Positions 2,088 to 27,332 of a stretch of 27,332 nt of DNA are shown here, piece by piece (position 1 is the first letter of the stretch; each line of letters begins with the position of its first letter). This stretch comes from Parcubacteria group bacterium. GTDB taxonomy: Bacteria; Patescibacteriota; Minisyncoccia; UBA6257; JACRHY01. The notes under the pieces were generated by a model that worked only from the letters and a program-made list of their open reading frames with translations, was not told the origin of the DNA and searched no databases. The position numbers and the translations under genes are program-made. The stretch is from positions 1 through 27,332 of the forward strand of contig JACRHY010000021.1 of NCBI GenBank assembly GCA_016215765.1, in the 5' to 3' direction.

Positions 2088-2097
2088 GAGAGCAAGA

Positions 2098-3827: not shown

Positions 3828-3845
3828 GGAGAATTATCGGAAAAT

Positions 3846-4193: not shown

Positions 4194-4210
4194 TGATGGG
4201 TTAAGTTATT

Positions 4211-7200
4211 TTATCCGCCGATTGCGGTTGCCTCCCTGCAAATAATTTTCGTTTCGCCGTCGCGCAGCGACACCCCTCCTTTTATCATTAAAACGCTGTT
4301 TTCTTGCCAAACGTCGGGATTTTTCGCCAGCGTATCGGAAAAAACGATTATCTCCATCGTTCCGCTCAAGTCCTCAATGCCGGCGAAAATCATCGGTTGG
4401 CCGAGTTTGGTGGTGATGCGCTTTATCCGCGACACGATTCCGGCGATGCTGATTACGGCCCTTGCCGGAATCTCCGCGCCTTTCGCCGCGATTTCTTTTA
4501 TTGATTGTACTTTATTTTCGGCCAGTTTGTTAAGATGGGCGTTGAGCGGGTGATCGGAGATGTAAAGTCCGAGCAATTCTTTTTCCCAGCCGAGTTTTTC
4601 CTGCGTTGACGCCGGCGGCGCCGCTTTCAGGCGGAACACCAGCGCGGAGAGGGAGCCGGCAAAAAGGGAATTTTGGGAACTGGCGCGCGCTTTTTTGCCG
4701 TCGGAGACGAATTTCAGGATATCGTCAATGTTTTTCAGCACGGCGTTTCTTTCGGCGCCCAGCGATTCAAGCGCTCCGCTTTTCGCCAAACTCTCAAGCG
4801 ATTTTTTATTAAGGTCTTTGTGCTGAACGCGGCTTAAAAAATCCCCCAAATCGGCGAAAGGCCCGCCGCGGCGACGCTCCTCTATGATCGCCTCCACGAT
4901 GTTCGCTCCGACATTTTTTATCGCTAAAAGCCCGAAGCGGACACTTGTTCCTTCGGGAGCGAAAAGCGTTGAGCTGGCGTTGATATCCGGGGGGAGAACG
5001 CTGATATCCATTTTTTTCGCTTCGGAAACGAGAACGGAAATCCGCTCAACGTCGCCCGATTCGGCGTTAAACAGGGCGGTCATAAATTCAACCGGAAAAT
5101 ACGCCTTTAAGTAGGCGGTTTGGTATCCGATTAAGGCGTAGCAGGCGGCGTGGCTTCGGTTGAAACCGTAACGCGCGAATGGCGGAAAGAGTTCCCAGAT
5201 CTGCGCCGCCGTTCTTTTGTCTATGCCGTTTTGAATCATTCCTGAAATAAGCTTTTCCTGCTGTTTGTCCAACAAGGATTTGATCTTTTTTCCGATGGCT
5301 TTGCGCAAAGTGTCGGCTTCGGCGAGGGTGAATCCGGCCAGGTCTCTGGCGATTTGCATCATTTGTTCCTGATAAACGCCGATGCCGTAAGTGTTTTTGA
5401 GAATCGGTTCCAGTTTGGGATGAAGATAGGAGATTCGCTCGCGGCCGTGCTTGCGGTTGACGTAAATGGGAATAAGCTCCATCGGACCGGGGCGGTAAAG
5501 CGCGACCATGGCGATAATGTCTTCAAGTTCCGTCGGACGTATTTCTTTGAGGTAGCGTCTCATCCCGGACGATTCCAGCTGAAAAACTCCGGTGGTGTCG
5601 CCGCGTTGGAGAAGTTCAAAGGTTTTTTTGTCGTCAAGGGGAAGGGCGGCGATATCTATCCGGGCGTCGGCAAACTCTTTCGCCAATCGCACCGTTTCTT
5701 CAATGATGGTGAGGTTCTTGAGTCCCAGAAAATCCATTTTCAAAAGGCCGAGATCTTCCACGCTGTGCATTTCCAGCTGGGTGATGACGGAATTTTCGTC
5801 CTGCGGGGAACGCTGAAGGGGGAGGTGTTCAATGAGCGGTTTTTTGGAAATAACGACTCCGCAGGCGTGCGTGGAAGCGTGGCGCGCCACTCCTTCCAGT
5901 TTTTTGGCGGCATCTATGACTTTTTTGGCGTCGGGGTCGTTTTTATACAGGTCGCCGAGTTCGGAAACGGCGGAAACGGCGTCGCTTAATCCGGAATTGA
6001 ACGGGATGAGTTTCGCGATTTTATCGCAGAAGCCGTAACTCAAACCGAGCGCCCGGCCGGCGTCGCGGATGGCGGCGCGGGCGGCCATCGTCCCGAAAGT
6101 GATAATCTGAGCGACGTTGCTTTCCCCGTATTTTTGTTTGACGTAAGCCAGCACTTCGTCGCGGCGGGTGTCGGCAAAATCAATGTCAATATCGGGCATC
6201 TGGATGCGGTCGGGATTGAGAAATCGTTCAAAAAGCAGGTTATATTTCAGCGGGTCAATGTCGGTGATGCCGAGAACGTAGGAAACCAAACTGCCGGCGG
6301 CCGAGCCGCGTCCGGGACCGACGACGATTCCGCGATCTTTCGCCCACTTAATGAGATCGGCGACAATGAGAAAATATTCGGCGAAGCCGGTTTTTTCAAT
6401 CACTCCCAATTCGTACTCAAACCGCTCAAGGACTTTTTGGTCATCGGGGGCGTATCGTTGGGACAGGCGTTCAAGGGCGAGCTCTCTAAGGTGAATGTCC
6501 GGAAAAACGCCCTCGGGAAGGGGATAGGACGGCAACTGCGTTTCGTTCAGTTTTAATTCAAGATTGCAGCGGTCGGCGATGGCGGAGGTGTTGCTTACCG
6601 CTTCGGGAACATCGCGGAAAAATTCCGCCATCTGTTCGGGAGAGGTCATTGAAAAATCGTCGCCTCTTAAAGACAGGCGGTCGTCGTCGGTTACTTTATT
6701 GCCCGTTTGGACGGCCAGCAGAATGTCGTGGTATTCGGCGTCTTCCGGTTTGAGATAGTGGATGTCTTGAGTGGCGACGAGAGGGATGCTTGTTTCGCGT
6801 GACAGCCGGATGAGCGACTCGCGGGCTTTTTGGGAGTCGGGGACGTTCGGGTGATGGCCGATTTCCAGAAAAAAATTGCCCTCGCGGAATATTTCTTCGT
6901 ATTCCCGCGCCGCTTTTTTCGCTTCTTCGTATCGGTCGGCAACGAGCAGTTTGGCGATTTCTCCGGAAACGCAGCCGGAAAGAGCGATAAGCCCTTCGTG
7001 ATGCCGGCGCAGAAGCTCTTTGTCCACTCGCGGCTTGTAGTAGTAGCCGTCAAGGTGCGCTTTCGTGATAAGCCGCACCAGATTTTTCCAGCCGGTTTCG
7101 TTTTCGCAGAGAAGGATTAAGTGGTATCTTTTGTCGTCTATTTTGGGACGCTTGTTTTCGTGGCCGTGAGGGGCGATGTACGTTTCCACTCCCAGAATCG

Positions 7201-14772: not shown

Positions 14773-15483
14773 TTAACGCGAGGGATAATATTGCCCGACG
14801 TTTTTTTCCATCATCTTGGCGTAGATGAAGTAAGCGGCGACGCTACCGATGAAATTAATCGCCAGTCCCGTCAGCCCCAGGAAGGCGACGGCTCCGAGAC
14901 CGAGTAGCGCTCCGATTGCGGCGCCGATAACTTGCGGCCAGAAAAGCAACTTGAATAGCGTATTCAGTTTATTGGCGAGAATCTTGGCCTGAAATCCCAT
15001 TATCGGCTCGTAGAATTTGGCCAGGATAAAACCGCCGATGCCGCCGAAAATTGCTCCATAAACGACGGCCATCACAAGTCCCGATATGTTGATAAAGGAA
15101 CCGCCCAGCGACGCGCTCCCCATCATTCCTCCGATAACGCCAAGGCCCATTATCGCGTTTTGGAAGAAAAAGTAAGCGGAAACGGAAGCGACGAGAGAAG
15201 TGATGGCGCCGGCAACGGCGTTCCAGATCGCGCTCCATTTCATCGTCTCAATCGTTTTTTGGTCAAAAGTGAACAAGTCGCTTTGGCTTGCGGCCGGCTG
15301 TCCGGCGGCCGGCGGCGGAACGGCGGCTCCGGCCGTTGAAGAAGCCGGCGAGGCGCCTCCCAGCGCTTCGTTAATGTCATTTTCCGGCCATTTGGCGTTG
15401 ATTAACGCCGCTCTGATTTGCTCGTCCGTTTTGCCCTCGGTTTTCGCTTTGGCGACAAAATCCGTTAATTGTTGATTTGCCAT
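14773..15483 (-). CDS. Hypothetical multi-pass membrane protein
   Basis: Small helical N-terminal domain (GKTDEQIRAALINAKWPENDINEAL), Pro/Ala linker and several Gly-rich hydrophobic helices. Likely start at 15483; 15534 is possible. Confidence 0.8.
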   Translation of the reverse strand: MANQQLTDFVAKAKTEGKTDEQIRAALINAKWPENDINEALGGASPASSTAGAAVPPPAAGQPAASQSDLFTFDQKTIETMKWSAIWNAVAGAITSLVASVSAYFFFQNAIMGLGVIGGMMGSASLGGSFINISGLVMAVVYGAIFGGIGGFILAKFYEPIMGFQAKILANKLNTLFKLLFWPQVIGAAIGALLGLGAVAFLGLTGLAINFIGSVAAYFIYAKMMEKNVGQYYPSR

Positions 15484-15594
15484 ATTTTCAATTTTAATTG
15501 TATTTTGGCGCGTCCGTCTTTTCGACTTTTTCAATCAAGCGCGTTATTTGATATCATTCTATTACATAATATAGTAGCATAAATCGTTTGAAAA

Positions 15595-17076
15595 ATGGAA
15601 AAGACGAGTAAAAAAACAAACATTCCCGGGAGCGTGGCGGAAATTGCGGGCGTTTTGCGAAAAAACGGCTTTAAGGCCTATTTCGTAGGCGGTTGCGTCC
15701 GCGATCTTTTGCTTGGCCGCGACCCGAAGGACTGGGACATAGCCGCCAATGCCAGGCCGGAAGAAGTGATGAAAATTTTTCCCGATTCTTTTTGCGAGAA
15801 TAAATTCGGAACGGTCGGCGTTAAGGCGAAAATGGAAAATGGAGAAACGGAAATCGTTGAAGTGACAACTTTCCGCAAAGAGGGAAAGTATTCCGATTTT
15901 CGCCGTCCGGACGAAATTAAGTTCGCCGAAACTATTGAGGAAGATCTCGCGAGGCGTGATTTTACGGTAAACGCGCTCGCCCTGAACATTGCCGAAGGAA
16001 TGGCAGAAAAAATCATTGATCCATTTAACGGCCAAAGCGACATTCAAAACAAAATTATCCGCGCCGTCGGCGATCCGCGGGAACGATTCGGAGAAGACGC
16101 CCTGCGGCTGATGCGGGCGGTTCGTTTCGCCTGCCAGCTTAATTTTACCATCGCGGAAGAAACGGCGGCGGCGATTAAGGAAAAGGCGGGACTGCTGGAG
16201 GCGATTTCCAAAGAGAGAATCCGCGACGAACTGCAAAAGACCATAATGAGCCCAAAAGCGGCCGGCGGAATCGCGATGCTTGAGGATTTGGGGTTGCTGC
16301 GTCATATTTTACCGGAACTCCGCGAAGGGCTGGGCGTCGGGCAAAATAAACACCATATTTACGGCGTTTGGGAGCATAATCTGCGCGCGCTTGATTACGC
16401 GGCTTCAAACGGCTATTCCTTTGAAGTAAGGACGGCTTCTCTTCTTCACGATGTCGGCAAACCACGCTCCAAGCGCGGCGAGGGACCGGATTCCACTTTT
16501 TACGCCCACGAAATAATCGGCGGCAAAATGACGGCGCGTCTTTTGGATAATCTGAAATTTTCCAAGGAAACAGTTGAAAAAATCACTCATCTGGTCAGGC
16601 ATCACCTTTTTTATTACAACGTTGACGAGGTGACGGAGGCGGGAGTGAGGAGATTTTTGAGCCGCGTCGGCGTTGAACACATAGACGATCTTTTCAAGGT
16701 GAGGGAAGCGGACCGGATCGGATCCGGCGTGCCGAAAGCGGTGCCTTATAAATTGCGCCATTTGAGATTTATGATTGACAAGGTCCGTCACGATCCCCTT
16801 AGTCCGAAAATGCTGAAGGTGAATGGCGGCGACGTGATGACGATTGCCGGTCTTGAACCCGGCCCGAAAATAGGGCGGATTTTGGCCGTTTTGCTGGAAG
16901 AAGTGCTGGACGACCCCGCGAAAAACGACCGGGAGGACTTAAAGGACAGAGTTTTTGCTCTGGCGAAATTGTCCGATGAAGAGCTGGAAAAGCTGGCTCA
17001 ACGCGCGAAGAAAACGAAAGAAGAATTTGAATCGGGGATCGTTGAGGAGATGAAAAAAAAGCACTATGTGAAATAG
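15595..17076 (+). CDS. cca: CCA tRNA nucleotidyltransferase with HD domain
   Basis: GGCVRD..DWD, EDLARRDFTVNA, EDALRLMRAVRF, RIRDEL and LLHDVGKP. The flexible-loop segment FRKEGKYSDFRRP is present. Confidence 0.9.
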   Translation: MEKTSKKTNIPGSVAEIAGVLRKNGFKAYFVGGCVRDLLLGRDPKDWDIAANARPEEVMKIFPDSFCENKFGTVGVKAKMENGETEIVEVTTFRKEGKYSDFRRPDEIKFAETIEEDLARRDFTVNALALNIAEGMAEKIIDPFNGQSDIQNKIIRAVGDPRERFGEDALRLMRAVRFACQLNFTIAEETAAAIKEKAGLLEAISKERIRDELQKTIMSPKAAGGIAMLEDLGLLRHILPELREGLGVGQNKHHIYGVWEHNLRALDYAASNGYSFEVRTASLLHDVGKPRSKRGEGPDSTFYAHEIIGGKMTARLLDNLKFSKETVEKITHLVRHHLFYYNVDEVTEAGVRRFLSRVGVEHIDDLFKVREADRIGSGVPKAVPYKLRHLRFMIDKVRHDPLSPKMLKVNGGDVMTIAGLEPGPKIGRILAVLLEEVLDDPAKNDREDLKDRVFALAKLSDEELEKLAQRAKKTKEEFESGIVEEMKKKHYVK

Positions 17077-17201
17077 TTCGCACTCGTTGCTTTTATGCGG
17101 CGATTGCTGTATTTTAGAAATGCCGAAAAGTTGAGTATTCACGGCGAAAACCTTTCGGAAAGTGATTAGTTAAAACGGGTTGTAGCCCGTTAGAAATAGA
17201 T

Positions 17202-17272
17202 CGGGCTGTAGTATACCGGTAGTACGTGCGCTTCGGGTGCGTAAAGACCGGGTTCAATTCCCGGCAGCCCGA
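17202..17272 (+). tRNA. tRNA-Pro(CGG), CCA not encoded
   Basis: Acceptor CGGGCTG/CAGCCCG, anticodon arm TGCGC-TT-CGG-GT-GCGTA, T-arm CCGGG-TTCAATT-CCCGG. Confidence 0.92.
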
Positions 17273-17332
17273 CTGAACGAAGTGAAGGAGGGGGGGCGAG
17301 GCGAAACTTGTAGGCAATTCCCGGCAGCCCGA
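17255..17332 (+). repeat. 18-bp direct repeat of the tRNA-Pro 3' end
   Basis: CAATTCCCGGCAGCCCGA at 17255-17272 and at 17315-17332, 60 bp apart. Confidence 0.9.
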
Positions 17333-17352
17333 TTTCGTAAATTAGGCCGGAT

Positions 17353-17388
17353 TTGATTTTTAGGGCGTTGGTGTATATAATACACTCA
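17353..17388 (+). promoter_or_regulatory. nrtR promoter with overlapping NrtR-type operator
   Basis: TTGATT (17353)-17 bp-TATAAT (17376). Operator TTG-GTGT-ATATAAT-ACAC-TCA at 17368-17388. Confidence 0.75.
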
Positions 17389-17390
17389 AT

Positions 17391-18065
17391 ATGTCTAAGT
17401 ATGGACGGAAATATACGCATGCAGTTATAGCCACGGACGTTGTGGTTTTTACGATCAAGGATGAAAAATTGCAGGCACTTTTGATTAAAATGAAAAAGCC
17501 GGAATTTCGCGGATACTGGGCCGTTCCGGGAGGTCTCGTCAAAGGAGAGGAGGGGCTTGAGACGGCCGCTTTCCGGCATCTATCGGAAAAAACTGGTATG
17601 CGAGGGGTGTATATTGAGCAGCTGCAAACATTTGGGGATCCAAAGCGGGATCCGTTTGGGCGGGTCGTTTCGGTCGCATATATCGCCCTTGTTTCCTGGG
17701 ACAAACACGAGTTAAAAACGTCGGAACAGTATGGGGGCGTCGCATGGTTTCCGATTGCCGGTCTCCCGAAACTTGCATATGATCACGAAGAGATCGTGCG
17801 TATGGCCGCTACGCGCCTTAAAGCAAAAATAGAATATACCAATATCGTGCGCGGATTGTTGCCGAGGAGGTTTACTCTTACCGAGCTCCAGCGTGCATAC
17901 GAGATCATTTTGGGGAAGGTGATTGATAAAAGGAATTTCAGGAAAAAAATATTGGAAACGAAAATCATTAAGGAAGTGAAAGGAAAAATTTCAAGCGGGG
18001 CGCACAGACCGGCGCGAATGTATCGATTTGTCGTCGACAAACCGCAGGCCGTTGAAATGCTGTAG
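17391..18065 (+). CDS. nrtR: NrtR family Nudix-wHTH transcriptional regulator
   Basis: WAVPGG, degenerate Nudix box (RHLSEKTG), EQLQTFGDPKRDP, LAYDH, and wHTH FTLTELQRAYE...DKRNFRKK...RPARMY. Confidence 0.93.
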   Translation: MSKYGRKYTHAVIATDVVVFTIKDEKLQALLIKMKKPEFRGYWAVPGGLVKGEEGLETAAFRHLSEKTGMRGVYIEQLQTFGDPKRDPFGRVVSVAYIALVSWDKHELKTSEQYGGVAWFPIAGLPKLAYDHEEIVRMAATRLKAKIEYTNIVRGLLPRRFTLTELQRAYEIILGKVIDKRNFRKKILETKIIKEVKGKISSGAHRPARMYRFVVDKPQAVEML

Positions 18066-18115
18066 AACCTATCTCAAAATATCTCCAGCCGGGATATATT
18101 TTGAGATAGGTTCTA
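18063..18115. repeat. Perfect 20-bp inverted repeat starting at the nrtR stop codon
   Basis: TAGAACCTATCTCAAAATAT (18063-18082) / ATATTTTGAGATAGGTTCTA (18096-18115), 13-nt spacer. Confidence 0.9.
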
Positions 18116-18133
18116 GTGCTAGGGGGAGTAAAT

Positions 18134-18185
18134 TTGACAGATAAACTTTCGGCGTGTTATATAGATAGTGTACACTTGACACGAA
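18134..18185 (+). promoter_or_regulatory. Promoter and NrtR-type operator upstream of the pncA-vWA unit
   Basis: TTGACA at 18134, AT-rich -10-like region at 18157-18163, operator ATA-GTGT-ACACTTG-ACAC-GAA at 18165-18185. Confidence 0.65.
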
Positions 18186-18344
18186 CTGATGGGGGGTGTA
18201 TGCTGGTAATAAATACAGTACGGAACGAAAAAGGAGGGGAGATGTTTGATGCTGTATGCGTCGCGGCATCAGACATCTCCGCTACTTTGCGGGGAGATAT
18301 CGAACAAGGGGTTTGATATCGTTCTTTAAAAATAGATAACCAGC

Positions 18345-18450
18345 TAAATCGACGAAGGGAGGTTTCGGTCATGAAAAAAAGAAAACGAATTACCGGTTAA
18401 ATCGATGAAGGGGCGCTTCTGTTTTGAAAAAAAGAAAACAGTTAACCGGC
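18345..18450 (+). repeat. Two tandem 53-bp degenerate direct repeats in the pncA leader
   Basis: 18345-18397 and 18398-18450 match at 41/53 positions without gaps. Confidence 0.75.
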
Positions 18451-18471
18451 CAAACCAAGGAGGTCTTTGCC

Positions 18472-19299
18472 ATGAAAAAAAATCTCAAGGTTCACCTCGT
18501 CATCATCGATCCGCAGAAGGATTTTATGGACGATCCCGATTCGGCCCTGCCCGTTGCCGGCGCCAACGCCGACATGAAGCGGGTGGCGGTCATGATCGAT
18601 CGCATTGGGCACAAACTCGAGGACATCCACGTGACTCTGGATTCGCATCGCGTCATTGACGTGGGGCATCCGGGAATGTGGCGGAACTCGGACGGCAGGA
18701 CGCCGGGGCCATTCACTATGATCTCGGCTGATGATATCAAAAACGGTATCTGGGCGCCGCGCGATCCCGCGCTCACCAAGCGCATGGTCGCATACGCGAA
18801 CGCTCTTGAAGCCGGCGGAAAATATCCGCTTATGGTCTGGCCGGAGCACTGTATCATCGGCACTCCGGGACACAACGCGCAGACCGACCTTATGGCGGCG
18901 CTCGTGCGGTGGGAGCGGAAGCATTTCGCGAACGTGGATTACGTGGTGAAAGGCACCAACACGTTCACCGAGCACTACGGCGCTTTGATGGCCGAAGTGC
19001 CGGATCCTTCCGATCCCGGTACGGGGCTCAACACCGCCTTTCTTGACGTGCTCGCGGATGCCGACATCGTCGCAGTCGCGGGAGAAGCGCTCTCGCATTG
19101 CGTGAAGTCCACCGTTTCCCAGATAGCCGAAAATATCGGCGCGGACCAGGTCAAGAAGTTTCATATCTTGATTGACGGTTCAAGCCCGGTTTCCAAAGTG
19201 GGGAACGGGCCCGACTTTCCGGCAATCGCGGCGGCGTGGCTTCGGGATATGGAGGCGCAGGGTATGAAACTCGTCAAGTCCGACGAATTTCTCGCCTGA
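18472..19299 (+). CDS. pncA: Nicotinamidase-like cysteine hydrolase (isochorismatase family)
   Basis: IIDPQKDF (Asp), TLDSH, WPEHC, VKG (Lys) and AGEALSHCV (Cys). AAGGAGG at 18457-18463 supports the ATG at 18472. Substrate inferred from gene context. Confidence 0.8.
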   Translation: MKKNLKVHLVIIDPQKDFMDDPDSALPVAGANADMKRVAVMIDRIGHKLEDIHVTLDSHRVIDVGHPGMWRNSDGRTPGPFTMISADDIKNGIWAPRDPALTKRMVAYANALEAGGKYPLMVWPEHCIIGTPGHNAQTDLMAALVRWERKHFANVDYVVKGTNTFTEHYGALMAEVPDPSDPGTGLNTAFLDVLADADIVAVAGEALSHCVKSTVSQIAENIGADQVKKFHILIDGSSPVSKVGNGPDFPAIAAAWLRDMEAQGMKLVKSDEFLA

Positions 19300-19333
19300 C
19301 CACCCCACTCATCAATCATACAGGAGACGCATC

Positions 19334-20083
19334 ATGCCAAAACTTACCGGGAGTACTATGGAAACGCGCAAGATTGGCGCGAGTAATTTCAATTTCACCG
19401 GAGCACGCATCGATAATCTGGGTGCGACGGAATACACTCTGGTGACGGTCGCGATTGACGTGACCGGCTCGGTATCCGGCTTTGAGGGTGATCTGCGGCA
19501 GGCGCTCATCGCTACCGTGGAGGCCTGCAAGAAGTCGCCGCGTTCGGAGAATTTACTCCTTCGGGTCGTTATGTTTTCTACCGCGGTCGGCGGCGTCTCG
19601 GAACTTCACGGCTTCAAGCCGCTTGCCGATATTGACCCGAATGATTACGCCGCGTTTGTTCCCGACGGAGGTACGCCGCTCTACGATGCGATGTACTCCG
19701 CTGTCGGAGCGACGGTGGTCTACGGAAAGGACCTCTGGGACAATGACTATCTCGTGAACGGCATCGTTTTCGTCATCACTGACGGAGCCGATAATGCGTC
19801 GGTTGCGACGCCGGTCATGATCAAGAAGAAAATTGACTCGGTGAAATCGGGCGAGAAACTTGAATCGCTCATCACCATCTTAGTCGGGGTGAATGCGCAG
19901 ATGTATCAGTGCGCTCTCGAGGAGTTTCGTGACAATGCCGGCATCACTCAATATATTGATGCCGGCGATGCGACCAAAGCCAAACTCGCCAAGCTCGCGG
20001 CGTTCGTCTCCCGATCGGTTTCAAGCCAATCACAGGCGCTTGGCACCGGCGGTCCGAGCCAAAATATCCAGGCCGTTATCTGA
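19334..20083 (+). CDS. von Willebrand factor A domain protein (TerY/YegL-like)
   Basis: MIDAS-like DVTGS, GGTPLYDA and FVITDGADN; CAGGAG RBS. Confidence 0.85.
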   Translation: MPKLTGSTMETRKIGASNFNFTGARIDNLGATEYTLVTVAIDVTGSVSGFEGDLRQALIATVEACKKSPRSENLLLRVVMFSTAVGGVSELHGFKPLADIDPNDYAAFVPDGGTPLYDAMYSAVGATVVYGKDLWDNDYLVNGIVFVITDGADNASVATPVMIKKKIDSVKSGEKLESLITILVGVNAQMYQCALEEFRDNAGITQYIDAGDATKAKLAKLAAFVSRSVSSQSQALGTGGPSQNIQAVI

Positions 20084-20094
20084 AGTATAGAGCT

Positions 20095-20124
20095 GGGGCG
20101 GCGACATTTCGCCGCCCCTTTTTT
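20095..20124 (+). terminator. Intrinsic terminator between vWA and PP2C genes
   Basis: Perfect 10-bp stem GGGGCGGCGA/TCGCCGCCCC, loop CATT, then T6. Confidence 0.8.
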
Positions 20125-20156
20125 CTTTCAGATGTTCACGCGCGGAGGGTATCGCA

Positions 20157-21044
20157 ATGAAGATATTTAGCACTGACCACTATTTTCACATCGGGCGTGC
20201 GCATACTCTTTCCGGAAAACCGAACCAGGACTATGCGATGTCGGGCGTGTTAAGAAACGGGGCATATGCAATCGTTTCTGACGGATGTTCGACAGGCGGG
20301 GCAACCGATGTCGGTGCGCGGGTAATCGCCCTCTCTCTTGTGGCGGCGATACGCGAATTACATCTGCCTAGCGCGGCCGTTTCTTCTGATGAAATGTTTG
20401 GTCCGCTCGATATTGTGCGTCGTCAAAACATACGGACCGCTACTGCCATGAAGCATCTCGGGCTTTCGCAGGATGACGCGCTCGCGACGTGCGTGTTCGC
20501 GTATCTTTCGGAGAATGGCGGCTATGTGCATGCGCGGGGAGACGGCGCCGTTGCGCTTGTAAAGAAAGACGGAACACTCATCCTTACGCGCATTGAATGG
20601 GAAGATAATATGCCATTTTATCCGGCGTACGCATATAAGCAGAAAACGCTTGACGATTTTATTGCCGCTCATGGCGGCGACATAAAGAGCGAGCGTGTGA
20701 CGGTTGAGACGTGCATGCTCGGACGCGACGGCTCCTATTCATGCGAAACGGCGCGACATATGCTTTCGGACGGACTTCTCGGGACGATCATCCCGATCGG
20801 TTCCGCGCTCATGGAAGAGCTTTCCTTTGTCGCCGTGTTTTCCGACGGAATTTCTCAATGCGGGGATCTTGATTGGAAAGATGCGGCGCGGTCTCTTGTA
20901 TCGTACAAAAATACGGCGGGAGAATTCGTCAAACGGCGAATGGCGCGATTTGTGAAAGACGAAGGAGCGTCAGGGCGCGATCCGATTGACGATATCGCAT
21001 GCGCCGCAATAAGCATCCGCGACGATGCGAGCGGACTTCCATAG
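20157..21044 (+). CDS. PP2C-family phosphatase (YegK-like)
   Basis: H...KPNQD, AIVSDGCS, AVFSDGI and DDIA metal-binding motifs; GGAGG RBS. Confidence 0.85.
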   Translation: MKIFSTDHYFHIGRAHTLSGKPNQDYAMSGVLRNGAYAIVSDGCSTGGATDVGARVIALSLVAAIRELHLPSAAVSSDEMFGPLDIVRRQNIRTATAMKHLGLSQDDALATCVFAYLSENGGYVHARGDGAVALVKKDGTLILTRIEWEDNMPFYPAYAYKQKTLDDFIAAHGGDIKSERVTVETCMLGRDGSYSCETARHMLSDGLLGTIIPIGSALMEELSFVAVFSDGISQCGDLDWKDAARSLVSYKNTAGEFVKRRMARFVKDEGASGRDPIDDIACAAISIRDDASGLP

Positions 21045-21097
21045 CTGCCGCGTCGCGGGCTTCGGTCCGCGGCGCGGAACGGGGGAGGGCGTATCAC

Positions 21098-22828
21098 ATG
21101 ATACGGAATGGCAATAGAAGGGTTGTCTTAGAAGGACGAGGGGCGCTCACGCTCTATCCCGGGGATTATATTACCTCTGGCGGCGAGGGGGCGATCTATA
21201 GGACGGGAAATACCGTCGTAAAGATCTACGCGGATGCAAAAAAAATGGCGCGTGACGGTATGGCGGACAAAATCGCGCTTCTCTCCGCGCTTTCGCATCC
21301 GTTCATCGTTGCGCCGAAAGGATTGGTACGCGACGAGAGGGGTGTCCCGATCGGGTACTACATGGATTTTGCTGACGGCGAACTGCTTCCGCGGCTTTTC
21401 ACGAATGATTTTCGTACACGCGTCGGATTCTCCGATGCGGGAGCAACGACGCTTGTCGCGGGAATGCGCGAGGCGGTACTCGCGGCGCATGCGCACAAGG
21501 CGATCATGGTTGACGGGAACGAGTTCAACTGGCTCGCGCTGTTACAAGGAAAGCAAAAGCCGGAACCGCGCGTGATTGACGTTGATTCGTGGGCGATAGG
21601 AAGGTGGCCGGCAACTGTCGTAATGCCTTCGATTCTTGACCGGCACATAAAGGGATTCACTGAATTCTCCGATTGGTTTTCATGGGGGGTGGTGAGTTTT
21701 CAGGTCTTTATCGGTATTCATCCGTATAAAGGGAAGCTTGACGGATTTCTCCCGGGAGATCTTGAAGGAAGAATGAAGGCGAATGCCTCGGTGTTCTCCA
21801 AGGATATACGGTTAAACAAAGCGGTGCGGGACTTCTCGGTTATTCCGAGGCCTCTCTATGATTGGTATAGGGGCGTGTTCCAAAACGGAGAGCGGAGCGT
21901 ACCGCCGTCTCCATTCGCGAAAAGCGCGAGTATTATCGCGGGAGCGAAAACGTTTTACGCGACCGCATCCGGATCCGGGCTTTTGGTTCACAGTAAACTA
22001 TTCGGCCAGTCTGGCGAGTGTGCAGTACGCGTGTTTCCGTCAGGGATCGCGCTTCTTGATTCGGGCGGACTTTTTAATCTCTCCGCGAAGAGATATATCG
22101 GGAAAGTCAGTTCGCTTGACTGCGAGGTCGTTTGGATCAAGGACGGATGGCTGGTGGCGGAATCAATAAAAGGCGGCGTTTCGTTTTCTTTTATCGACGC
22201 CACGGCGGGAGGAAGCATCCCGCTTAACGCGACACAACAATACTCCCGCATATTTCGGGCGGATGACAGATTATTCGCGGTTAGCGAAGGATCGCTTGTT
22301 GAACTGGGTGTGCGATTTGGGAAAAGCCCGATGCTTGTTGTAGAAAAAACATGGGGGATTATGAAACAATCGGCGCTTTTTTTCGACGGCGTCGGCGTTC
22401 AGTCCGCGCTTGGGGCGGCGTATCTCATTGTCCCATTCGGAGAGCGGTCGTGCGTATTTATTCGCGCGCGGGAGCTTGACGAGCTTACCGTTCTTTCGGC
22501 GAAAGGAGGCACGCGGTTTGCCGCAATCGTTGCGGTTGACAGGCGGGGAGTATTCTATAAGCTGGAGTTTACGTTTGACGAGGCGTACGCCTCTTACCGG
22601 TTGCGGCGGGGCGGGGTGGATAATCCCGATCTCAACATGGCCATACTGCCGAAGGGCGTATGCGCCACGATCGTTGACGATGGAGAGCTCGTTATATTTG
22701 CCCCGACATTCGGCGCCGTCAATCGCGTTTCGGATAAAAGTATTACGGCCGATGCGCAACTTTTCCGGCATGAGGACCGCGTCGTATACGTACGAAACGG
22801 TGAAGTGTGGCGCGTGCAGTTGAAATAA
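21098..22828 (+). CDS. YegI-like Ser/Thr protein kinase with long C-terminal region of unknown function
   Basis: SGGEGAIY, VKIY, DGNEFN catalytic loop, IDVDSW, SDWF and IHPYKG. GGGAGG RBS supports the ATG at 21098 (576 aa). Confidence 0.85.
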   Translation: MIRNGNRRVVLEGRGALTLYPGDYITSGGEGAIYRTGNTVVKIYADAKKMARDGMADKIALLSALSHPFIVAPKGLVRDERGVPIGYYMDFADGELLPRLFTNDFRTRVGFSDAGATTLVAGMREAVLAAHAHKAIMVDGNEFNWLALLQGKQKPEPRVIDVDSWAIGRWPATVVMPSILDRHIKGFTEFSDWFSWGVVSFQVFIGIHPYKGKLDGFLPGDLEGRMKANASVFSKDIRLNKAVRDFSVIPRPLYDWYRGVFQNGERSVPPSPFAKSASIIAGAKTFYATASGSGLLVHSKLFGQSGECAVRVFPSGIALLDSGGLFNLSAKRYIGKVSSLDCEVVWIKDGWLVAESIKGGVSFSFIDATAGGSIPLNATQQYSRIFRADDRLFAVSEGSLVELGVRFGKSPMLVVEKTWGIMKQSALFFDGVGVQSALGAAYLIVPFGERSCVFIRARELDELTVLSAKGGTRFAAIVAVDRRGVFYKLEFTFDEAYASYRLRRGGVDNPDLNMAILPKGVCATIVDDGELVIFAPTFGAVNRVSDKSITADAQLFRHEDRVVYVRNGEVWRVQLK

Positions 22829-22870
22829 TGCCCCGGATTTGGTTGTTTGTATGCATGTTCTTTGTTTTTG

Positions 22871-22910
22871 GCGGCGGAGGAGAGTATTCTCTCCTCCCGC
22901 CCGCTTTTTT
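22871..22910 (+). terminator. Intrinsic terminator after the kinase gene
   Basis: Stem GGAGGAGAG/CTCTCCTCC, loop TATT, extended GC pairing, then T6. Confidence 0.7.
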
Positions 22911-23018
22911 CAGCATAGTGCCTTGAAGGGAACGCGATTCTCTTTAATGCACCGTCTTGAAAGACGGAGGGTTGTTCTTTGATACGCAGTAATCGTGAAA
23001 TTAATATGGAGGCGTCGC

Positions 23019-24254
23019 GTGGATACGCAGATCATCAAATCGTTGCTTGATATTGATTTTTACAAGCTCACGATGCTCCAGTTCATTCATCGCCACTTCG
23101 GCGGCGTGCCGGTCGTCTTCTCGTTCTTAAACAGGACGAAAGAAGTCGATCTTACGCGCTACATTTCCGAAGCGGTTCTTCGCGAAGAAATCGCGCGAGT
23201 GCGGGATCTTTCGTTTACCGACGAAGAGGTCGCGTATCTCGCAAAGAATTCATTTTTACCACGGGGATTTTTCACGCCAGAGTTTCTCGGGTTTTTGAAA
23301 GAATTTCGCTTGCCCGAGCCTTCTGTCGTGTGGCGAAGAGGGAACTACGCGATCAATGTTTCCGGATCGTGGGCGGAAGCGACGCTCTGGGAGACGCTCA
23401 TACTATCGCTTGTAAACGAGCTCTATTATCGGGGCGTTCTTGCGGGCAAGGGGCTCCGGCTTGAGATCCTTTATCCGGAAGGCGAGGCGCGTCTTCGGAA
23501 AAAAATCGCCATCCTTGAGCAGCGTCCGCATGTGGCGTTCAGCGACTTCGGCACGCGAAGACGGTTTAGCCGGACATGGCAGGAGCATGTGGTTCGCACG
23601 CTCTCCTCCGAACTCCCCAAAAGCCAGATGCTCGGCACGTCAAATGTCCTACTTGCGAAAGAGTTCGACCTTCGTCCGATCGGGACATTTGCCCACGAGC
23701 TCTATATGGTGTTTTCGGGAATTTTCCGCGGGAGCGATGCGGAGATGCGCAATTCGCATAATATGGTGCTTCGGTTGTGGTGGGAGATGTACGGCGAGCC
23801 GCTTTCAATCGCGCTTACCGACACTTACGGAACGGACTTCTTTTTCCGCGATTTCACGGATGAACAGGCGCGGAAGTGGAGAGCGCTTAGGCACGATTCC
23901 GGCGATCCGGTCGCGTTCGGCAAAGGGGCGATTGCGTTTTATCGCGAACGCGGTATTGATCCGAGAGAAAAGACCCTGGTGTTCAGCGACGGTCTTGATA
24001 TTGACGCGATACTCGCCATTCACAAGGAGTTGTCATCTGAGATCGGCGTCGTATTCGGGTGGGGGACGAATCTCACCAACGATCTCGGGCCGCGCGCGCT
24101 TTCGCTCGTGATGAAGGTGGCGATTGCAAACGGTAATCGCGTCGTGAAGTTAAGCGACAACATCGCCAAAGCAACAGGAGACCCGCTTCTCGTCGAACGA
24201 TATAAGCGCGTATTCGGATACGCATCCGCGTTCAACGAATATCCCGTCTATTAA
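23019..24254 (+). CDS. pncB: Nicotinate phosphoribosyltransferase
   Basis: SLLDIDFYKLTM, DFGTRRRFS, GTSNV, GTFAHE, LTDTYGT, RHDSGDP, FSDGLD, FGWGTNLTND and KLSDN. GGAGG at 23008 supports the GTG at 23019. Confidence 0.95.
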   Translation: MDTQIIKSLLDIDFYKLTMLQFIHRHFGGVPVVFSFLNRTKEVDLTRYISEAVLREEIARVRDLSFTDEEVAYLAKNSFLPRGFFTPEFLGFLKEFRLPEPSVVWRRGNYAINVSGSWAEATLWETLILSLVNELYYRGVLAGKGLRLEILYPEGEARLRKKIAILEQRPHVAFSDFGTRRRFSRTWQEHVVRTLSSELPKSQMLGTSNVLLAKEFDLRPIGTFAHELYMVFSGIFRGSDAEMRNSHNMVLRLWWEMYGEPLSIALTDTYGTDFFFRDFTDEQARKWRALRHDSGDPVAFGKGAIAFYRERGIDPREKTLVFSDGLDIDAILAIHKELSSEIGVVFGWGTNLTNDLGPRALSLVMKVAIANGNRVVKLSDNIAKATGDPLLVERYKRVFGYASAFNEYPVY

Positions 24255-24264
24255 GTAATGTATC

Positions 24265-24305
24265 GGCCATGCCGCGCGTAATGCGGCATGGCCTTTTCTT
24301 TTTTT
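24265..24305 (+). terminator. Intrinsic terminator after pncB
   Basis: Perfect 11-bp stem GGCCATGCCGC/GCGGCATGGCC followed by a long T tract. Confidence 0.85.
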
Positions 24306-24335
24306 GCGCGTTCTCCACGCCGCGTTATAAGGGTC

Positions 24336-24394
24336 TTGACAGCGCGGCGCCACATGCGTATATTAGTGTATAATATACACTAATATACGCATGT
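24336..24394 (+). promoter_or_regulatory. nadE promoter with NrtR-type operator inside a 43-bp perfect palindrome
   Basis: TTGACA (24336)-17 bp-TATATT (24359). Operator TTA-GTGT-ATAATAT-ACAC-TAA at 24363-24383. 21-bp perfect arms at 24352-24372 and 24374-24394. Confidence 0.85.
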
Positions 24395-24395
24395 T

Positions 24396-26348
24396 ATGAA
24401 AAAGAGCTTATACGGCAACAATTTCGGATTTATAAGAGTCGCGGCAGCCGTGCCTTTTGTGCGCGTGGGCGATCTCAGATTCAATACTCGCGAGATCATT
24501 GCGGCGGCGCGGCGGGCGTCCGCTGAAACGGCGGCAGTCGTCGTGTTTCCGGAACTTTCTCTCACCGGATACTCTCTTGGAGATCTTTTTCAGCACGAAT
24601 GCGTGCAGATGGAAGCTCTTCGTGCGGCGCAAGAAATCGCGGAGGCCTTGCGTGATAAAAAAATCATCACGGTGATTGGCTTACCCATTCCGGTCGGGGC
24701 CGCTTTATATAATGTTGCGGCTGTCTTATATGGCGGAAATATCGTTGGCGTCGTGCCGAAAACATATCTTCCTGGGTATAAAGAGTTTTACGAAGAGCGA
24801 TGGTTTTCTTCCGGAGTAAGTCTTTCTCAAAAAACTATCTCAATAGCGGGAAAAGAAGTTCCGATCGGAACGGATATTTTGTTTGAATTATCGTTCGATC
24901 CGCGCATCGTGCTTGGCATTGAGATCTGCGAAGACGCGTGGGTGCCCATTCCTCCCTCCGCGCGACAAGCGCTTTCCGGAGCGACCATCATCGCGAATCT
25001 CTCCGCGTCAAACGATCTTATTGGAAAAGCGGCGTATCGAAAGGACTTGATAAAACATCATTCGGCAAGCGGCATATCCGGATATATTTATGCGTCGGCG
25101 GGAGTTTCGGAATCAACGACCGATGTCGTGTACGGCGGGCACGCCATAATCGCCGAGAACGGAACGATATTAAGCGAGTCCGAACGGTTCAGGCGGGAAG
25201 GAACAATCCAATATGCGGATATTGATATTGAGCATCTCGTGTTTGACAGAAAAAAGACGACGAGTTTCGAGGCGGCGCGAGCGCATGTGCGTGGCCCTTC
25301 TTTCAGACGTATTGCGATTGATATGCCGTACGGGCCGCTTAAAAACAGCAAGCGGCGCATAGACCCGCGACCATTTGTTCCGGACGAAAATAATAATGAC
25401 GATGTGCGTGACGTGTTTGCGATACAATCGCACGCATTAGCGCAGAGACTTTCATATGCGGGGCTCGATAATGCTGTCATTGGAGTTTCCGGCGGTTTGG
25501 ACTCCGCGCTTGCGCTTCTTGTCGCGGCCGAGGCCTGCGCTATTCTCCGTATTCCGGCTGCGTGTATTCACGCCATTTCCATGCCAGGACCCGCGACGAG
25601 CGATCGCACGAAAAGAAACGCGCGCATTCTTTCGGATGCGCTCGGCGCGACATTTGAAGAAATATCAATACATGACGGAGTGGCGGTGCAGATCAAAGAT
25701 ATCGCGCACGATGGAAAGACGCAGGACGTCGTGTTTGAGAACGTGCAGGCGCGCTATCGCACCATGATTCTTATGGACAAAGCGAACCAGACCCGCGGCA
25801 TCGTCGTGGGGACGGGGGATCTTTCCGAGATAGCTCTCGGATGGAATACGTTCACCGGCGATCATATTTCGCACTACAATGTGAACGCCGGTGTTCCAAA
25901 AACACTGATTGCGCGCGTGGTCTCATGGGCATGTTCGCAGGAGCGTTTTTCCGCTACGCGCTCGGCGCTTCAAGACATTCTTTCGACTCCCGTATCTCCA
26001 GAATTGACGATGAATAAAAAAGGAGCATTGACGCAGAAAACCGAAGATATATTAGGACCCTACGAACTCCATGATTTTTTTCTCTATCATTTCGTACGAT
26101 GGGGGAGCTCTCCGGCAAAGATCGCATATCTCGCGAGAAACGCCTTTACGGGCATCTACAGTGCGGCGGATATAAGGTTAAGATTAAAAATTTTTCTGAA
26201 ACGGTTTTTCGCGAATCAATGGAAACGTTCGGTAATGCCCGACGGTCCGAAAGTCGGTTCAGTGTCATTATCGCCTCGCGGCGATTGGCGCATGCCGTCG
26301 GATGCGCACGCGTCCTTTTGGGTTGACGGCATCCGCAAGCCCCGTTAG
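24396..26348 (+). CDS. nadE: Glutamine-dependent NAD(+) synthetase
   Basis: Nitrilase-domain triad (FPELSLTGY, VPKTYLP..EFYE.RWF, EICED) plus synthetase SGGLDS, ENVQARYRT, GTGDLSE and PDGPKVG. Confidence 0.96.
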   Translation: MKKSLYGNNFGFIRVAAAVPFVRVGDLRFNTREIIAAARRASAETAAVVVFPELSLTGYSLGDLFQHECVQMEALRAAQEIAEALRDKKIITVIGLPIPVGAALYNVAAVLYGGNIVGVVPKTYLPGYKEFYEERWFSSGVSLSQKTISIAGKEVPIGTDILFELSFDPRIVLGIEICEDAWVPIPPSARQALSGATIIANLSASNDLIGKAAYRKDLIKHHSASGISGYIYASAGVSESTTDVVYGGHAIIAENGTILSESERFRREGTIQYADIDIEHLVFDRKKTTSFEAARAHVRGPSFRRIAIDMPYGPLKNSKRRIDPRPFVPDENNNDDVRDVFAIQSHALAQRLSYAGLDNAVIGVSGGLDSALALLVAAEACAILRIPAACIHAISMPGPATSDRTKRNARILSDALGATFEEISIHDGVAVQIKDIAHDGKTQDVVFENVQARYRTMILMDKANQTRGIVVGTGDLSEIALGWNTFTGDHISHYNVNAGVPKTLIARVVSWACSQERFSATRSALQDILSTPVSPELTMNKKGALTQKTEDILGPYELHDFFLYHFVRWGSSPAKIAYLARNAFTGIYSAADIRLRLKIFLKRFFANQWKRSVMPDGPKVGSVSLSPRGDWRMPSDAHASFWVDGIRKPR

Positions 26349-26368
26349 AAGCTTTGCTTCTAACGGGG
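26340..26368. repeat. Palindrome family B copy containing the nadE stop codon
   Basis: Perfect 13-bp arms CCCCGTTAGAAGC / GCTTCTAACGGGG with TTT loop; the nadE TAG is at 26346-26348. Confidence 0.9.
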
Positions 26369-26486
26369 GAAGCTATGAAAAGCAAAAAAGGAAAAAACGC
26401 TTTGCCTTTTCGCCCCGCCGGAGCTCTTTTCGTGCGGCGATGCGAGTGCGGGATATCACTCGTATTTTTCTATGTTAATATAAATA

Positions 26487-26735
26487 ATGCTTGATTGGGA
26501 AAACAATCCGATGCTTTGGGAGTTCGGATGGCTGTTTTTGTCCTCACTTTGGGGGCTTCTTGTTATTGGAATTATCGCGCTTATCAGGCGGTTGGCGGCT
26601 CGGCCAAAAGGATCGCTCGGCGAACGCAAATACTCCGCTCGTTCGGCGGATGCCTCGCCGCCGGAAATTCCGAAGGATTGATTCGCCGGAAGCGAGATTG
26701 ACAAAAAAGAGTTTGAGGAAAAAAGAGGGGTTTAA
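26487..26735 (+). pseudogene. SHOCT-type small membrane protein interrupted by an in-frame TGA
   Basis: Hydrophobic WEFGWLFL..WGLLVIGIIALIR helix, then EIPKD*FAGSEIDKKEFEEKRGV in the same frame, resembling the SHOCT pattern ILKERFAxGEIxxEEFEE. Confidence 0.6.
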
Positions 26736-27049
26736 GTTGACGGAAAATTCGTCCGCGAATTGGCGGCCTTGAGAGCTTGTGTCGCTGTGGAGATAACGTA
26801 AACGAATGCCGCCATAAGCAGAGCGTAAGAAGGAAATTCGTACGCCTCGCCCATTTTTGTCTTTAAGTCAAAAATGTCATCGGCCAAATGCCAAAGAGTA
26901 AGAACGAATATCAATACGAAAAAAACATATAGCGAACGGAAAAGGCGATGGCTTAATCCGCGTTTTATCAAGCGCTGCACTAAAATAACCGCCGCGAAAG
27001 CGAGCATCGGCTGGGCGATTGCGAGAGCCAAATGAATAGCGCGTATCAT
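26732..27049 (-). CDS. Small hypothetical membrane protein (about 3 TM helices)
   Basis: Alternating hydrophobic stretches. Likely start MIRAIHL at 27049; 27100 is possible. Confidence 0.65.
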   Translation of the reverse strand: MIRAIHLALAIAQPMLAFAAVILVQRLIKRGLSHRLFRSLYVFFVLIFVLTLWHLADDIFDLKTKMGEAYEFPSYALLMAAFVYVISTATQALKAANSRTNFPST

Positions 27050-27157
27050 TGTTGATATATTATACCGTTTTTGACGGACGGGCGATTGCCCTTCCGCCAT
27101 TTTTTAATTATACTGCCTCTGATAGTTTTCTTGTAGTTTCTTGAAAGGGGGGGCGCA

Positions 27158-27332
27158 ATGGAGGAGAGAACCGAATTTTTGCGGGATTTTATTTTTGAAT
27201 CCAACGCGATTGAAAACATCAAAGACGACAAAGGGCGGCTGGAAAAAGAAATAAGAGAGAATAAGCCGGACGGCCATGTCGGCGCGGCGCTTTATTTAGA
27301 ACGGCTGGCGGCGGATAAAAAAAGATTGCTAA
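27158..27332 (+). CDS. 3'-truncated ORF, possibly Fic family
   Basis: G-rich RBS, then MEERTEFLRDFIFESNAIENIKDD... open to the window edge. ESNAIE resembles the N-terminal SNAIE motif of Fic proteins; the catalytic HPF motif is not in the window. Confidence 0.5.
   Translation, partial: MEERTEFLRDFIFESNAIENIKDDKGRLEKEIRENKPDGHVGAALYLERLAADKKRLL

Follow-up and report, generated by a model that had tools for sequence, protein, structure and literature searches.

Why is a serine/threonine kinase encoded, together with a PP2C-type phosphatase and a von Willebrand factor A (vWA) protein, in the middle of a locus for the salvage of nicotinamide adenine dinucleotide (NAD) in an ultra-small bacterium? 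NAD supply is a battleground between phages and bacteria, and it is a bottleneck for ultra-small symbiotic bacteria. The question is raised by a stretch of 27,332 nucleotides, referred to here as the window, which is contig JACRHY010000021.1 (positions 1 to 27,332 of the forward strand; contig C8 in our numbering) of assembly GCA_016215765.1, the 86% complete genome of a Parcubacteria group bacterium. A first-pass annotation, made from the sequence alone, had described seven co-oriented genes between 17391 and 26348, namely nrtR, a pncA-like gene (its product is called PncAl here), vWA, PP2C, kinase, pncB and nadE; all seven are present on the plus strand (Table 1). Its supposition that the DNA comes from the candidate phyla radiation (CPR) agrees with the size of the genome, which is 514 kb in 45 contigs. 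The gene arrangement is far beyond chance, since the same set recurs in more than 120 independent loci. With confidence that is evenly balanced, we read the locus as a horizontally acquired NAD-salvage island controlled by the repressor NrtR, the entry step of which would also be gated by phosphorylation, and as a mobile module rather than a stand-alone defence system.

A unit of four genes recurs in bacteria and in huge phages

Genome collections were searched with the vWA protein and its alignment, and the loci recovered were scored by tblastn with the window proteins. PncAl lies directly upstream of vWA in 81 of the 82 non-redundant cellular loci, and the fixed order PncAl-vWA-PP2C-kinase is found in 77 of them, the others hitting contig edges or being too divergent to score. 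A reverse check from two PncAl proteins on long contigs led to the same operon. The cellular loci come from many CPR lineages and from contigs labelled Micavibrio, Bdellovibrionales, Rickettsiales, Methylococcaceae, Thiodictyon, Desulfobacterales, Thermosynechococcus and Bradyrhizobium, some of which labels may reflect binning errors in metagenome-assembled genomes. The module is patchily distributed, being found in 2 of 41 relatives. Of 301 genomes sampled evenly from the phylum, 5 contain the module and 14 contain NrtR; none of the 5 lacks NrtR, which is adjacent in 4, an association that is descriptive only as related genomes are not independent.

PncAl and vWA are also both encoded on 39 of 39 non-redundant IMG/VR contigs, many of 100-620 kb and viral by IMG/VR's own classification, and all four genes are found on 35. 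The viral copies are 25-60% identical to the window proteins and have other genes interspersed, with PncAl and vWA adjacent in 30 of the 39. Two huge phages in GenBank, LR745208.1 (485 kb) and LR756511.1 (595 kb), have matches that cover at least 96% of vWA, and all four genes were identified by tblastn in the LR745208.1 locus. The Bradyrhizobium copies map to predicted prophages of 110-132 kb, next to a phage-type Dam and a HerA-like ATPase. A divergent CPR variant with 27-39% identity has the order NrtR-PP2C-kinase-(gap)-PncAl-vWA (loci L133-L136; genomes G224, G188, G126 and G284, of other CPR families). Since the set survives such divergence and rearrangement, the comparison argues for functional coupling of the four proteins. 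The first-pass annotation had proposed a vWA/PP2C/kinase triad placed between the first and second salvage enzymes; this position is correct, but the conserved unit is not the triad, as it comprises four genes and includes PncAl.

The fetched 10-kb flank includes a gene of NAD metabolism (nrtR, pncB, nadE, nadD, NAD kinase, nadA or prs) in 52 of the 82 cellular loci and in 22 of the 39 viral ones. A full layout is exemplified by NrtR-PncAl-vWA-PP2C-kinase-NadD/NADK fusion-PncB-Prs-NadE. The co-occurrence of the triad with NAD genes in other genomes, on which the earlier proposal had been staked, is therefore seen in CPR bacteria, in Proteobacteria and in phages. No publication describing the four-gene unit was found in the full-text literature, though a mention in Anantharaman et al. 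2012 is possible, and a full-text search for literature on NrtR in Patescibacteria returned none.

One of the prophage copies, in Bradyrhizobium embrapense (L064:3000-19000), forms a tight co-directional block with genes for a radical-SAM protein, a PRAI-like protein, a Dam methylase and a HerA-like ATPase. This cassette has an extra open reading frame (ORF) of 128 aa between PP2C and kinase, and the region is a prophage in IMG/VR.

PncAl and the components of the candidate phosphorylation switch

A profile built from 18 PncAl sequences (A2) matches four nicotinamidases in the PDB, three with E values of 4e-5 to 3e-4 and one at 0.07. Up to an E value of 1, the sole other match is a chance-level one to a beta-galactosidase (0.07), and no other isochorismatase-family protein is matched. 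Residues D13, D57, H59, H126, K160 and C210 are invariant in the 18-sequence alignment, and the motifs are kept in about 125 loci. The catalytic Asp and Cys of solved nicotinamidases fall on D13 and C210 in the alignment, K160 is part of a conserved KG motif, and an Asp-His-His metal site in the motifs TLDSH (D57, H59) and WPEHC (H126) aligns to the nicotinamidase-specific site. The homologue in locus L003 scores 21.4 bits against the isochorismatase family PF00857, for which the cut-off is 27. The family is large, with 2971 proteins at E <= 0.001 among word-index candidates, some of which were named nicotinamidase or isochorismatase by their sources. A genome-wide search of the 86%-complete assembly gave no match to PF00857, and the enzyme role is favoured for PncAl because no other isochorismatase-family gene was found. 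That PncAl acts as a nicotinamidase, converting nicotinamide to nicotinate for PncB, is well supported by these residues and matches.

PncAl, PncB and NadE are the members of the Preiss-Handler pathway encoded in the island, and in related loci the operon also includes NadD or a fusion of NadD with NAD kinase. A fusion of this kind, 457 aa long, lies inside the same operon in a Niyogibacteria genome (L015:14574-15947).

No match to the vWA protein was found in Pfam, NCBIfam or PADLOC. Sequence searches of the PDB found no vWA structure, the profile giving no match and the single sequence only chance-level matches to unrelated proteins, and a fold search was therefore needed. The AlphaFold2 (AF2) model (mean predicted local distance difference test, pLDDT, 83) has Escherichia coli YegL as its top Swiss-Prot fold match (E 4e-10, template modelling scores 0.65/0.73), and more than 470 vWA or integrin-I structures in the PDB match it at E <= 0.001. 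Alignment with YegL by hhalign gave an E value of 4e-4 and a probability of 36%. The metal ion-dependent adhesion site (MIDAS) is conserved, comprising DxT/SGS (DxTGS here), T114 and D150. At E <= 1e-30, the vWA profile retrieves 529 of 1.84 billion cluster representatives, and almost all of these are 240-258 aa long. The C-terminal ~30 residues (FVSxSVSSQSQALGTGGPS...) are serine-rich and disordered in the model, and their conservation extends from CPR bacteria to huge phages, including cases in which the remaining protein is only 41-50% identical. YegL also ends in a serine-rich stretch.

The profile of the kinase N-terminal domain (A3) matches eukaryote-type kinases in the PDB and aligns to E. 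coli YegI by hhalign with 96.8% probability (E 2e-10, 198 columns). The G-loop, Lys42, the D139xxxxN144 catalytic loop and the DFG-like D161-V-D163 are invariant. Family scans fell below significance, with an E value of 0.005 for Pfam Pkinase (under cut-off) and 0.15 in NCBIfam. The C-terminal ~290 aa of the predicted structure (pLDDT 89) form a 7-bladed beta-propeller, and not the zinc ribbon or OB-fold found in the kinases of CoCoNuT-linked or defence TerY-P systems. The metal-binding Asp motifs of the PP2C protein (NQDY, SDGCSTGG, FSDGIS and IDDIA) can be read from its translation, and BLASTP detected no significant similarity to PphC. A PHROGs scan returned unnamed families only (phrog_7371, 2e-8; phrog_19305, 8e-5). 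The likeness of the triad to TerY-P and YegL-PphC-YegI that had been suggested is borne out by YegL as top fold match, by the hhalign match to YegI and by the PP2C gene alongside. In genome G002 (L003:5319-7078) two overlapping ORFs, of 233 and 353 aa, take the place of a single kinase gene, with the break at the kinase-propeller junction; a frameshift, an error in sequencing or a true split could account for this.

Two candidate sites of phosphorylation emerge from these comparisons. The first is the serine-rich tail of the vWA protein, which may be a substrate or a docking motif. The second is more speculative: of 125 PncAl sequences, 123 have serine or threonine at position -2 from the catalytic Cys (Ser208 in the window), three aligned solved nicotinamidases have Asp or Glu at the equivalent position, and a phosphoserine at Ser208 could mimic this acidic residue.

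Operators point to NrtR control, and terminator-like hairpins divide the locus

The nrtR product matches Pfam NUDIX (2e-13, residues 16-136) and NrtR_WHD (7e-25, residues 156-213), both above cut-off, and the NCBIfam equivalog NF050029 at 1.8e-49 (168 bits, under the 400-bit cut-off). Its Nudix box, as read from the translation, is degenerate (RHLSEK against a consensus of REUxEE). Known NrtR operators are 21-bp palindromes with a GT-N7-AC core that overlap promoters (PMC2330246). Three operators in the window fit this description, each overlapping or abutting a promoter-like site (Table 1), and a search with the exact core gave 5 matches where 0.08 would be expected. Operator 3 is contained in a perfect 43-nt palindrome (24352-24394) of two 21-nt arms around one base. 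The layout of operator with TTGACA box also precedes PncAl in loci L004, L005, L007 and L013. Across the cellular loci, an operator is found within 350 nt upstream of PncAl in 37 of 78, of NrtR in 21 of 37 and of PncB in 12 of 36 (background density 0.11 per kb), and in none of 82 upstream of vWA or of 81 upstream of the kinase. Viral loci do not use the GTGTA-N5-TACAC motif. NrtR control, as the first-pass annotation had it, is in accord with operators that precede nrtR, PncAl and nadE and recur at orthologous positions in other CPR loci. It is well supported by these patterns that NrtR would bind palindromic operators at the promoter-like sites of nrtR, PncAl-vWA and nadE.

The hairpin and T-run that separate vWA from PP2C have an equivalent, of differing sequence, in 64 of 92 loci; the same type is found in the PncAl-vWA gap of 7 loci and in the PP2C-kinase gap of 1. 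This distribution suggests that PncAl and vWA are the main products and are made together, and that PP2C and kinase are made at a lower level by read-through. Such co-production fits the pairing seen in phages, where PncAl and vWA mostly stay adjacent while PP2C and kinase drift away. ADP-ribose, a product of NADases, is sensed by NrtR (PMC2330246), and by the biochemistry of the family this product of NAD cleavage would release NrtR. The earlier idea that ADP-ribose induces both salvage and a phosphorylation switch is plausible for PncAl and vWA; since PP2C and kinase lie behind a conserved terminator, their induction by ADP-ribose would depend on read-through.

The arrangement resembles that of known NrtR regulons, such as nrtR-pncA-pncB-nadD-nadE of Clostridium acetobutylicum, in which operators precede nrtR and pncB (Rodionov et al. 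2008, PMC2330246). In common are the Nudix and winged-helix repressor, the 21-bp GT-N7-AC operators over promoters and the same order of pathway genes. The differences are that the position of pncA is here taken by a longer, divergent nicotinamidase (275 aa, under the Pfam threshold), that vWA, PP2C and kinase follow it as a fixed unit, and that the island has no nadD, a gene that was not found in the assembly either.

Upstream of PncAl is a long leader, in which three repeated copies of a region of ribosome-binding site plus start lead into short MKKRK... micro-ORFs. Rfam at gathering thresholds found only three tRNAs in the window and no family in this leader, so no known riboswitch is present there.

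The locus is an accessory island next to a tRNA gene

A same-genus genome (G001) provides an outside view of the locus. By blastn, positions 1350-3831 of its contig L139 correspond to window 14773-17292 and positions 4021-4528 to window 26783-27327, with 189 bp between. Homology stops at 17292, which is 19 nt past tRNA-Pro, and window 17293-26782 is therefore an insertion or deletion just after the tRNA gene. G001 is 100% complete, its CCA-adding enzyme is 87% identical, and no match to NadE, PncB or vWA was found in it. A repeat of the tRNA 3' end marks the left edge of the island; such a repeat gave 2 matches, a number reached in 3 of 100 shuffles. No copy was found at the right end, so that the right boundary is known only to the homology break at 26783. 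The island contains no integrase. On this comparative evidence, the best reading is that the NAD island is accessory and was acquired horizontally.

The PncAl tree mixes the CPR lineages, on short branches, and has two separate clades, one mostly viral (36 viral, 6 cellular) and one mostly cellular (60 CPR, 12 other bacteria, 5 viral or prophage); being midpoint-rooted, the tree gives no direction of transfer between phages and cells. In G002, the homologue of the CCA-adding enzyme (C4:6207-7772, L138) has one in-frame TAG.

A salvage route that may be gated by phosphorylation

How might the components work together? We propose that PncAl and vWA would be made together as a working pair, with kinase and PP2C present at a lower level through terminator read-through. 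The kinase and PP2C would add phosphate to, and remove it from, the serine-rich tail of vWA and possibly PncAl itself, the beta-propeller of the kinase serving as its input domain. PncAl would convert nicotinamide to nicotinate, PncB would act next and NadE would complete the route, so that the entry step of nicotinamide salvage would be gated post-translationally as well as by transcription. The targets of phosphorylation named here are candidates. On the evidence against stand-alone defence and the comparison with phage NAD routes, both given below, we read the module as regulated nicotinamide salvage.

A more specific form of the scheme is that PncAl is activated by phosphorylation, with Ser208 phosphorylated by the propeller kinase and cleared by PP2C, and with vWA acting as the docking adaptor of an on/off switch for salvage. 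We consider this quite unlikely. Were it true, the switch would let CPR bacteria ration the nicotinamide that they obtain from a host and let huge phages restrict the rebuilding of NAD to times of its destruction by host immunity, and the module would constitute a fourth, regulated route of NAD reconstitution.

Several observations weigh against reading the locus as a phospho-gated salvage island under NrtR. Neither pncB nor PP2C-kinase has a recognisable operator of its own in the window, and NrtR control of them therefore rests on read-through. NadD (PF01467, CTP_transf_like) and NAD kinase (PF01513) were not found in the 86%-complete assembly, so that the Preiss-Handler pathway as assembled is without its adenylyltransferase step. 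PncAl gives no Pfam match at E <= 0.01 and none in NCBIfam or PADLOC, falling short of the threshold of PF00857, and its substrate is deduced from residues and context. A prediction of the PncAl-vWA complex scored 0.00, controls were not run, and the score carries no weight either way on binding. The loci were gathered through vWA, and the occurrence of PncAl without the triad was checked for two proteins only. About one third of cellular loci have no NAD gene in the flank, many of their contigs being short, and the Bradyrhizobium prophages have none on long contigs. Among sequencing runs, the stretch was found only in the groundwater metagenome that probably gave the assembly, and no RNA run contains it.

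If the link is real, it adds a layer of post-translational control to NAD salvage: a eukaryote-like Ser/Thr phosphorylation switch would be tied to one enzyme step across CPR bacteria, several other phyla and huge phages. The TerY-P/YegL-type triad would gain a concrete candidate substrate, and its function would be directly testable. The viral copies suggest that phages carry a regulated Preiss-Handler route beside NARP1-3.

Alternative explanations

The main alternative in purpose is that the module rebuilds NAD after attack, with phages undoing NAD-depleting immunity by a Preiss-Handler counterpart of NARP1-3 and cells recovering from NADase toxins. The kinase, phosphatase and vWA protein would turn the nicotinamidase on only during NAD destruction, and the CPR island would be a domesticated phage or mobile module. 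This overlaps with the phospho-gated salvage island and differs from it in selective purpose; we consider it rather unlikely. It would explain why the set is found, often together with pncB, nadE, nadD and nrtR, on the 39 IMG/VR contigs and in LR745208.1 and LR756511.1, why the Bradyrhizobium copies lie in predicted prophages and why the window copy is an insertion or deletion next to a tRNA gene; it is also consistent with the sensing by NrtR of a product of NADases (PMC2330246). However, the island has no phage genes and lies among housekeeping genes, the contigs count as viral by IMG/VR's own classification, and the cellular and viral PncAl clades are separate in a midpoint tree that shows no direction of transfer. 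Moreover, searches of the 86%-complete genome with SIR2 and TIR_2 found no such NADase, which also speaks against the proposal of the first-pass annotation that the locus responds to TIR/SIR2-type NADases.

Phages are known to carry other enzymes that build NAD from nicotinamide or related precursors, as in NARP1-3 (bioRxiv 10.1101/2024.02.11.579819; PMC13464706) and the NAD clusters of jumbo phages (PMC11662467). NARP1 reportedly consists of Adps and Namat, and NARP2 of Nampt and Nmnat. Phage NAD reconstitution is an established strategy (PMC13464706), and excerpts of the same paper describe NARP3 as a PnuC-like transporter with a NadR-like enzyme, NARP1 as recycling ADP-ribose and NARP2 as proceeding via nicotinamide mononucleotide. 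None of the NARP routes, as so summarised, uses a nicotinamidase, whereas the present module does. A term search of that paper returned excerpts with no nicotinamidase, pncA or vWA and with NrtR only as background; the two uses of 'kinase' and the one of 'phosphatase' that these display concern NadR-type and Nudix-like enzyme domains. Jumbo-phage pncB-nadD-nadE clusters are noted in PMC11662467, the excerpts of which mention no kinase, von Willebrand domain or NrtR. Unlike the phage routes, the copy in the window is chromosomal in a CPR bacterium.

Could the vWA protein instead load, sense or stabilise the metal centre of the nicotinamidase, so that phosphorylation reports metal rather than NAD status? 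This idea, modelled on other vWA/MIDAS partners that serve metalloenzymes, draws on the Asp-His-His metal site kept by PncAl, on the complete MIDAS motif kept by vWA and on PncAl-vWA adjacency as the most constant feature of the loci (81/82 cellular, 30/39 viral). The solved NorQ-NorD vWA complex is among the fold matches, and TerY-P has been proposed to be a metal-sensing phosphorylation switch (Anantharaman et al. 2012, as cited in an excerpt of PMC10542128). We find it improbable all the same, since the loci contain no MoxR-type AAA+ partner and canonical nicotinamidases need no such helper; the complex prediction, as scored above, brings it no support and has no weight in either direction.

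A stand-alone vWA protein also occurs in the ArnA/ArnB system. Archaeal ArnB is a vWA protein that works in a circuit of Ser/Thr kinase and phosphatase. The fold search with the window protein also retrieved the solved ArnAB complex (ranks 20 and 38), which reflects general vWA fold similarity only. ArnA/ArnB differs in regulating archaellum expression and in having an FHA partner instead of an enzyme.

The first-pass annotation had suggested a defence function as one possibility. In such an account, the locus would be a TerY-P-type anti-phage system in which kinase-activated PncAl destroys nicotinamide or disturbs NAD, thereby starving the phage or blocking its NAD reconstitution. The resemblance of the triad to YegL-PphC-YegI and TerY-P would fit, as would the patchy distribution, which is consistent with transfer (2/41 relatives, 5/301 genomes of the phylum, CPR lineages intermixed in the tree), and reported defence systems include TerY-P-like modules (Gao et al. 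2020, by the summary in PMC10542128). Nevertheless, no PADLOC-DB v2 model, those of TerY-P included, matches any of the four cassette proteins at E <= 0.01, the genes lie inside NAD-synthesis operons under an NAD repressor and not in defence islands, and the kinase has a beta-propeller in place of an OB-fold or zinc ribbon. Huge phages themselves carry the set next to NAD-synthesis genes, and NAD rebuilding therefore fits better than abortive defence. We conclude that a defence role is very unlikely.

The likeness to TerY-P and to the YegL-PphC(YegK)-YegI gene set of E. coli (bioRxiv 10.1101/819920, 10.1101/303594) consists in the combination of vWA, PP2C and Ser/Thr kinase, in the YegL and YegI matches and in the serine-rich vWA tails. 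The present module differs in having a fourth, obligate partner, the nicotinamidase. Its kinase is soluble with a beta-propeller, whereas YegI spans the membrane twice (10.1101/819920) and a zinc ribbon or OB-fold is found on other TerY-P kinases (PMC10542128). The lack of a match to the PADLOC TerY-P models, the lack of significant similarity of PP2C to PphC and the context of NAD metabolism under NrtR set it apart further.

That the triad is an unrelated mobile signalling cassette and a chance neighbour of pncA with no tie to NAD is exceedingly improbable: loci of Bradyrhizobium, Methylococcaceae and Thermosynechococcus without an NAD gene within 10 kb favour it weakly, but the comparative data argue strongly against it, as PncAl stays attached to the triad even in loci without NAD genes, the set survives rearrangement and divergence to 25-40% identity, and NrtR operators precede PncAl in about half of the cellular loci.

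Features of the window and minor observations

The features of the locus are collected in Table 1. The genes upstream of tRNA-Pro in the window are housekeeping genes, encoding MnmA, ThrRS, DnaE, RNase HII, ComEC, LysRS, NDK and the CCA-adding enzyme.

Table 1. Coordinates of genes, regulatory elements and island boundaries in the window.
Feature	Coordinates	Strand	Basis
tRNA-Pro (CGG)	17202..17273	+	ARAGORN and Rfam
9.5-kb accessory segment (NAD island)	17293..26782	.	Missing from same-genus genome G001
17-nt exact repeat of tRNA-Pro 3' end (also 17256-17272), 60 bp downstream, at island left edge	17316..17332	+	
Promoter-like site TTGATT-17-TATAAT with overlapping NrtR operator 1 (core 17371-17385, GTGTA-N5-TACAC)	17353..17385	+	Pattern scan
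nrtR, Nudix-related repressor with winged-helix domain	17391..18065	+	Pfam, NCBIfam
NrtR operator 2 (18168-18182, one arm mismatch) over -35 box of promoter-like site TTGACA-17-TATGCT (18176-18204)	18168..18204	+	
Long PncAl 5' leader with 23-nt-arm hairpin (18230-18288) and two 53-nt tandem repeats (18329-18434)	18205..18471	+	
PncAl, divergent nicotinamidase (well supported), 275 aa, isochorismatase-like fold family	18472..19299	+	Family profile; AAGGAGG 8 nt before ATG
YegL/TerY-like vWA protein, 249 aa	19334..20083	+	AF2 model and fold search
Intrinsic-terminator-like hairpin, GC-rich, with T-run, between vWA and PP2C genes	20095..20118	+	
PP2C-type Ser/Thr phosphatase, 295 aa	20157..21044	+	Pfam PP2C_2, 5e-15
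Ser/Thr kinase, 576 aa, probable start 21098 (ORF open from 20999)	21098..22828	+	Profile, hhalign, model
GC-rich imperfect hairpin then TTTTTT, 3' of kinase gene	22870..22910	+	Read from sequence; not listed by pattern scan
pncB, nicotinate phosphoribosyltransferase	22995..24254	+	NCBIfam NF003704 1e-132 and TIGR01514 1e-104, both above cut-off
Terminator-like hairpin (12 pairs, 9 GC) with T-run, after pncB	24265..24293	+	
Promoter-like site TTGACA-17-TATATT (11/12 matches), then NrtR operator 3 (24366-24380)	24336..24394	+	
nadE, glutamine-dependent NAD+ synthetase (CN_hydrolase and NAD_synthase)	24396..26348	+	NCBIfam NF002730 5e-246, above cut-off; Pfam

An inverted repeat at 18063-18115 (24-nt arms, 96% complementary, 5-nt loop) overlaps the nrtR stop codon. 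Having no T-run, it resembles a terminator less than it does a small palindromic element.

In CPR loci L003 (1082-2470), L007, L008, L013, L034, L045, L133 and L135, a gene for a protein of ~460 aa lies beside the module. A role in pyridine metabolism would be a guess; the N-terminal half has no family match, and residues ~235-345 form a class I S-adenosylmethionine (SAM)-methyltransferase domain.

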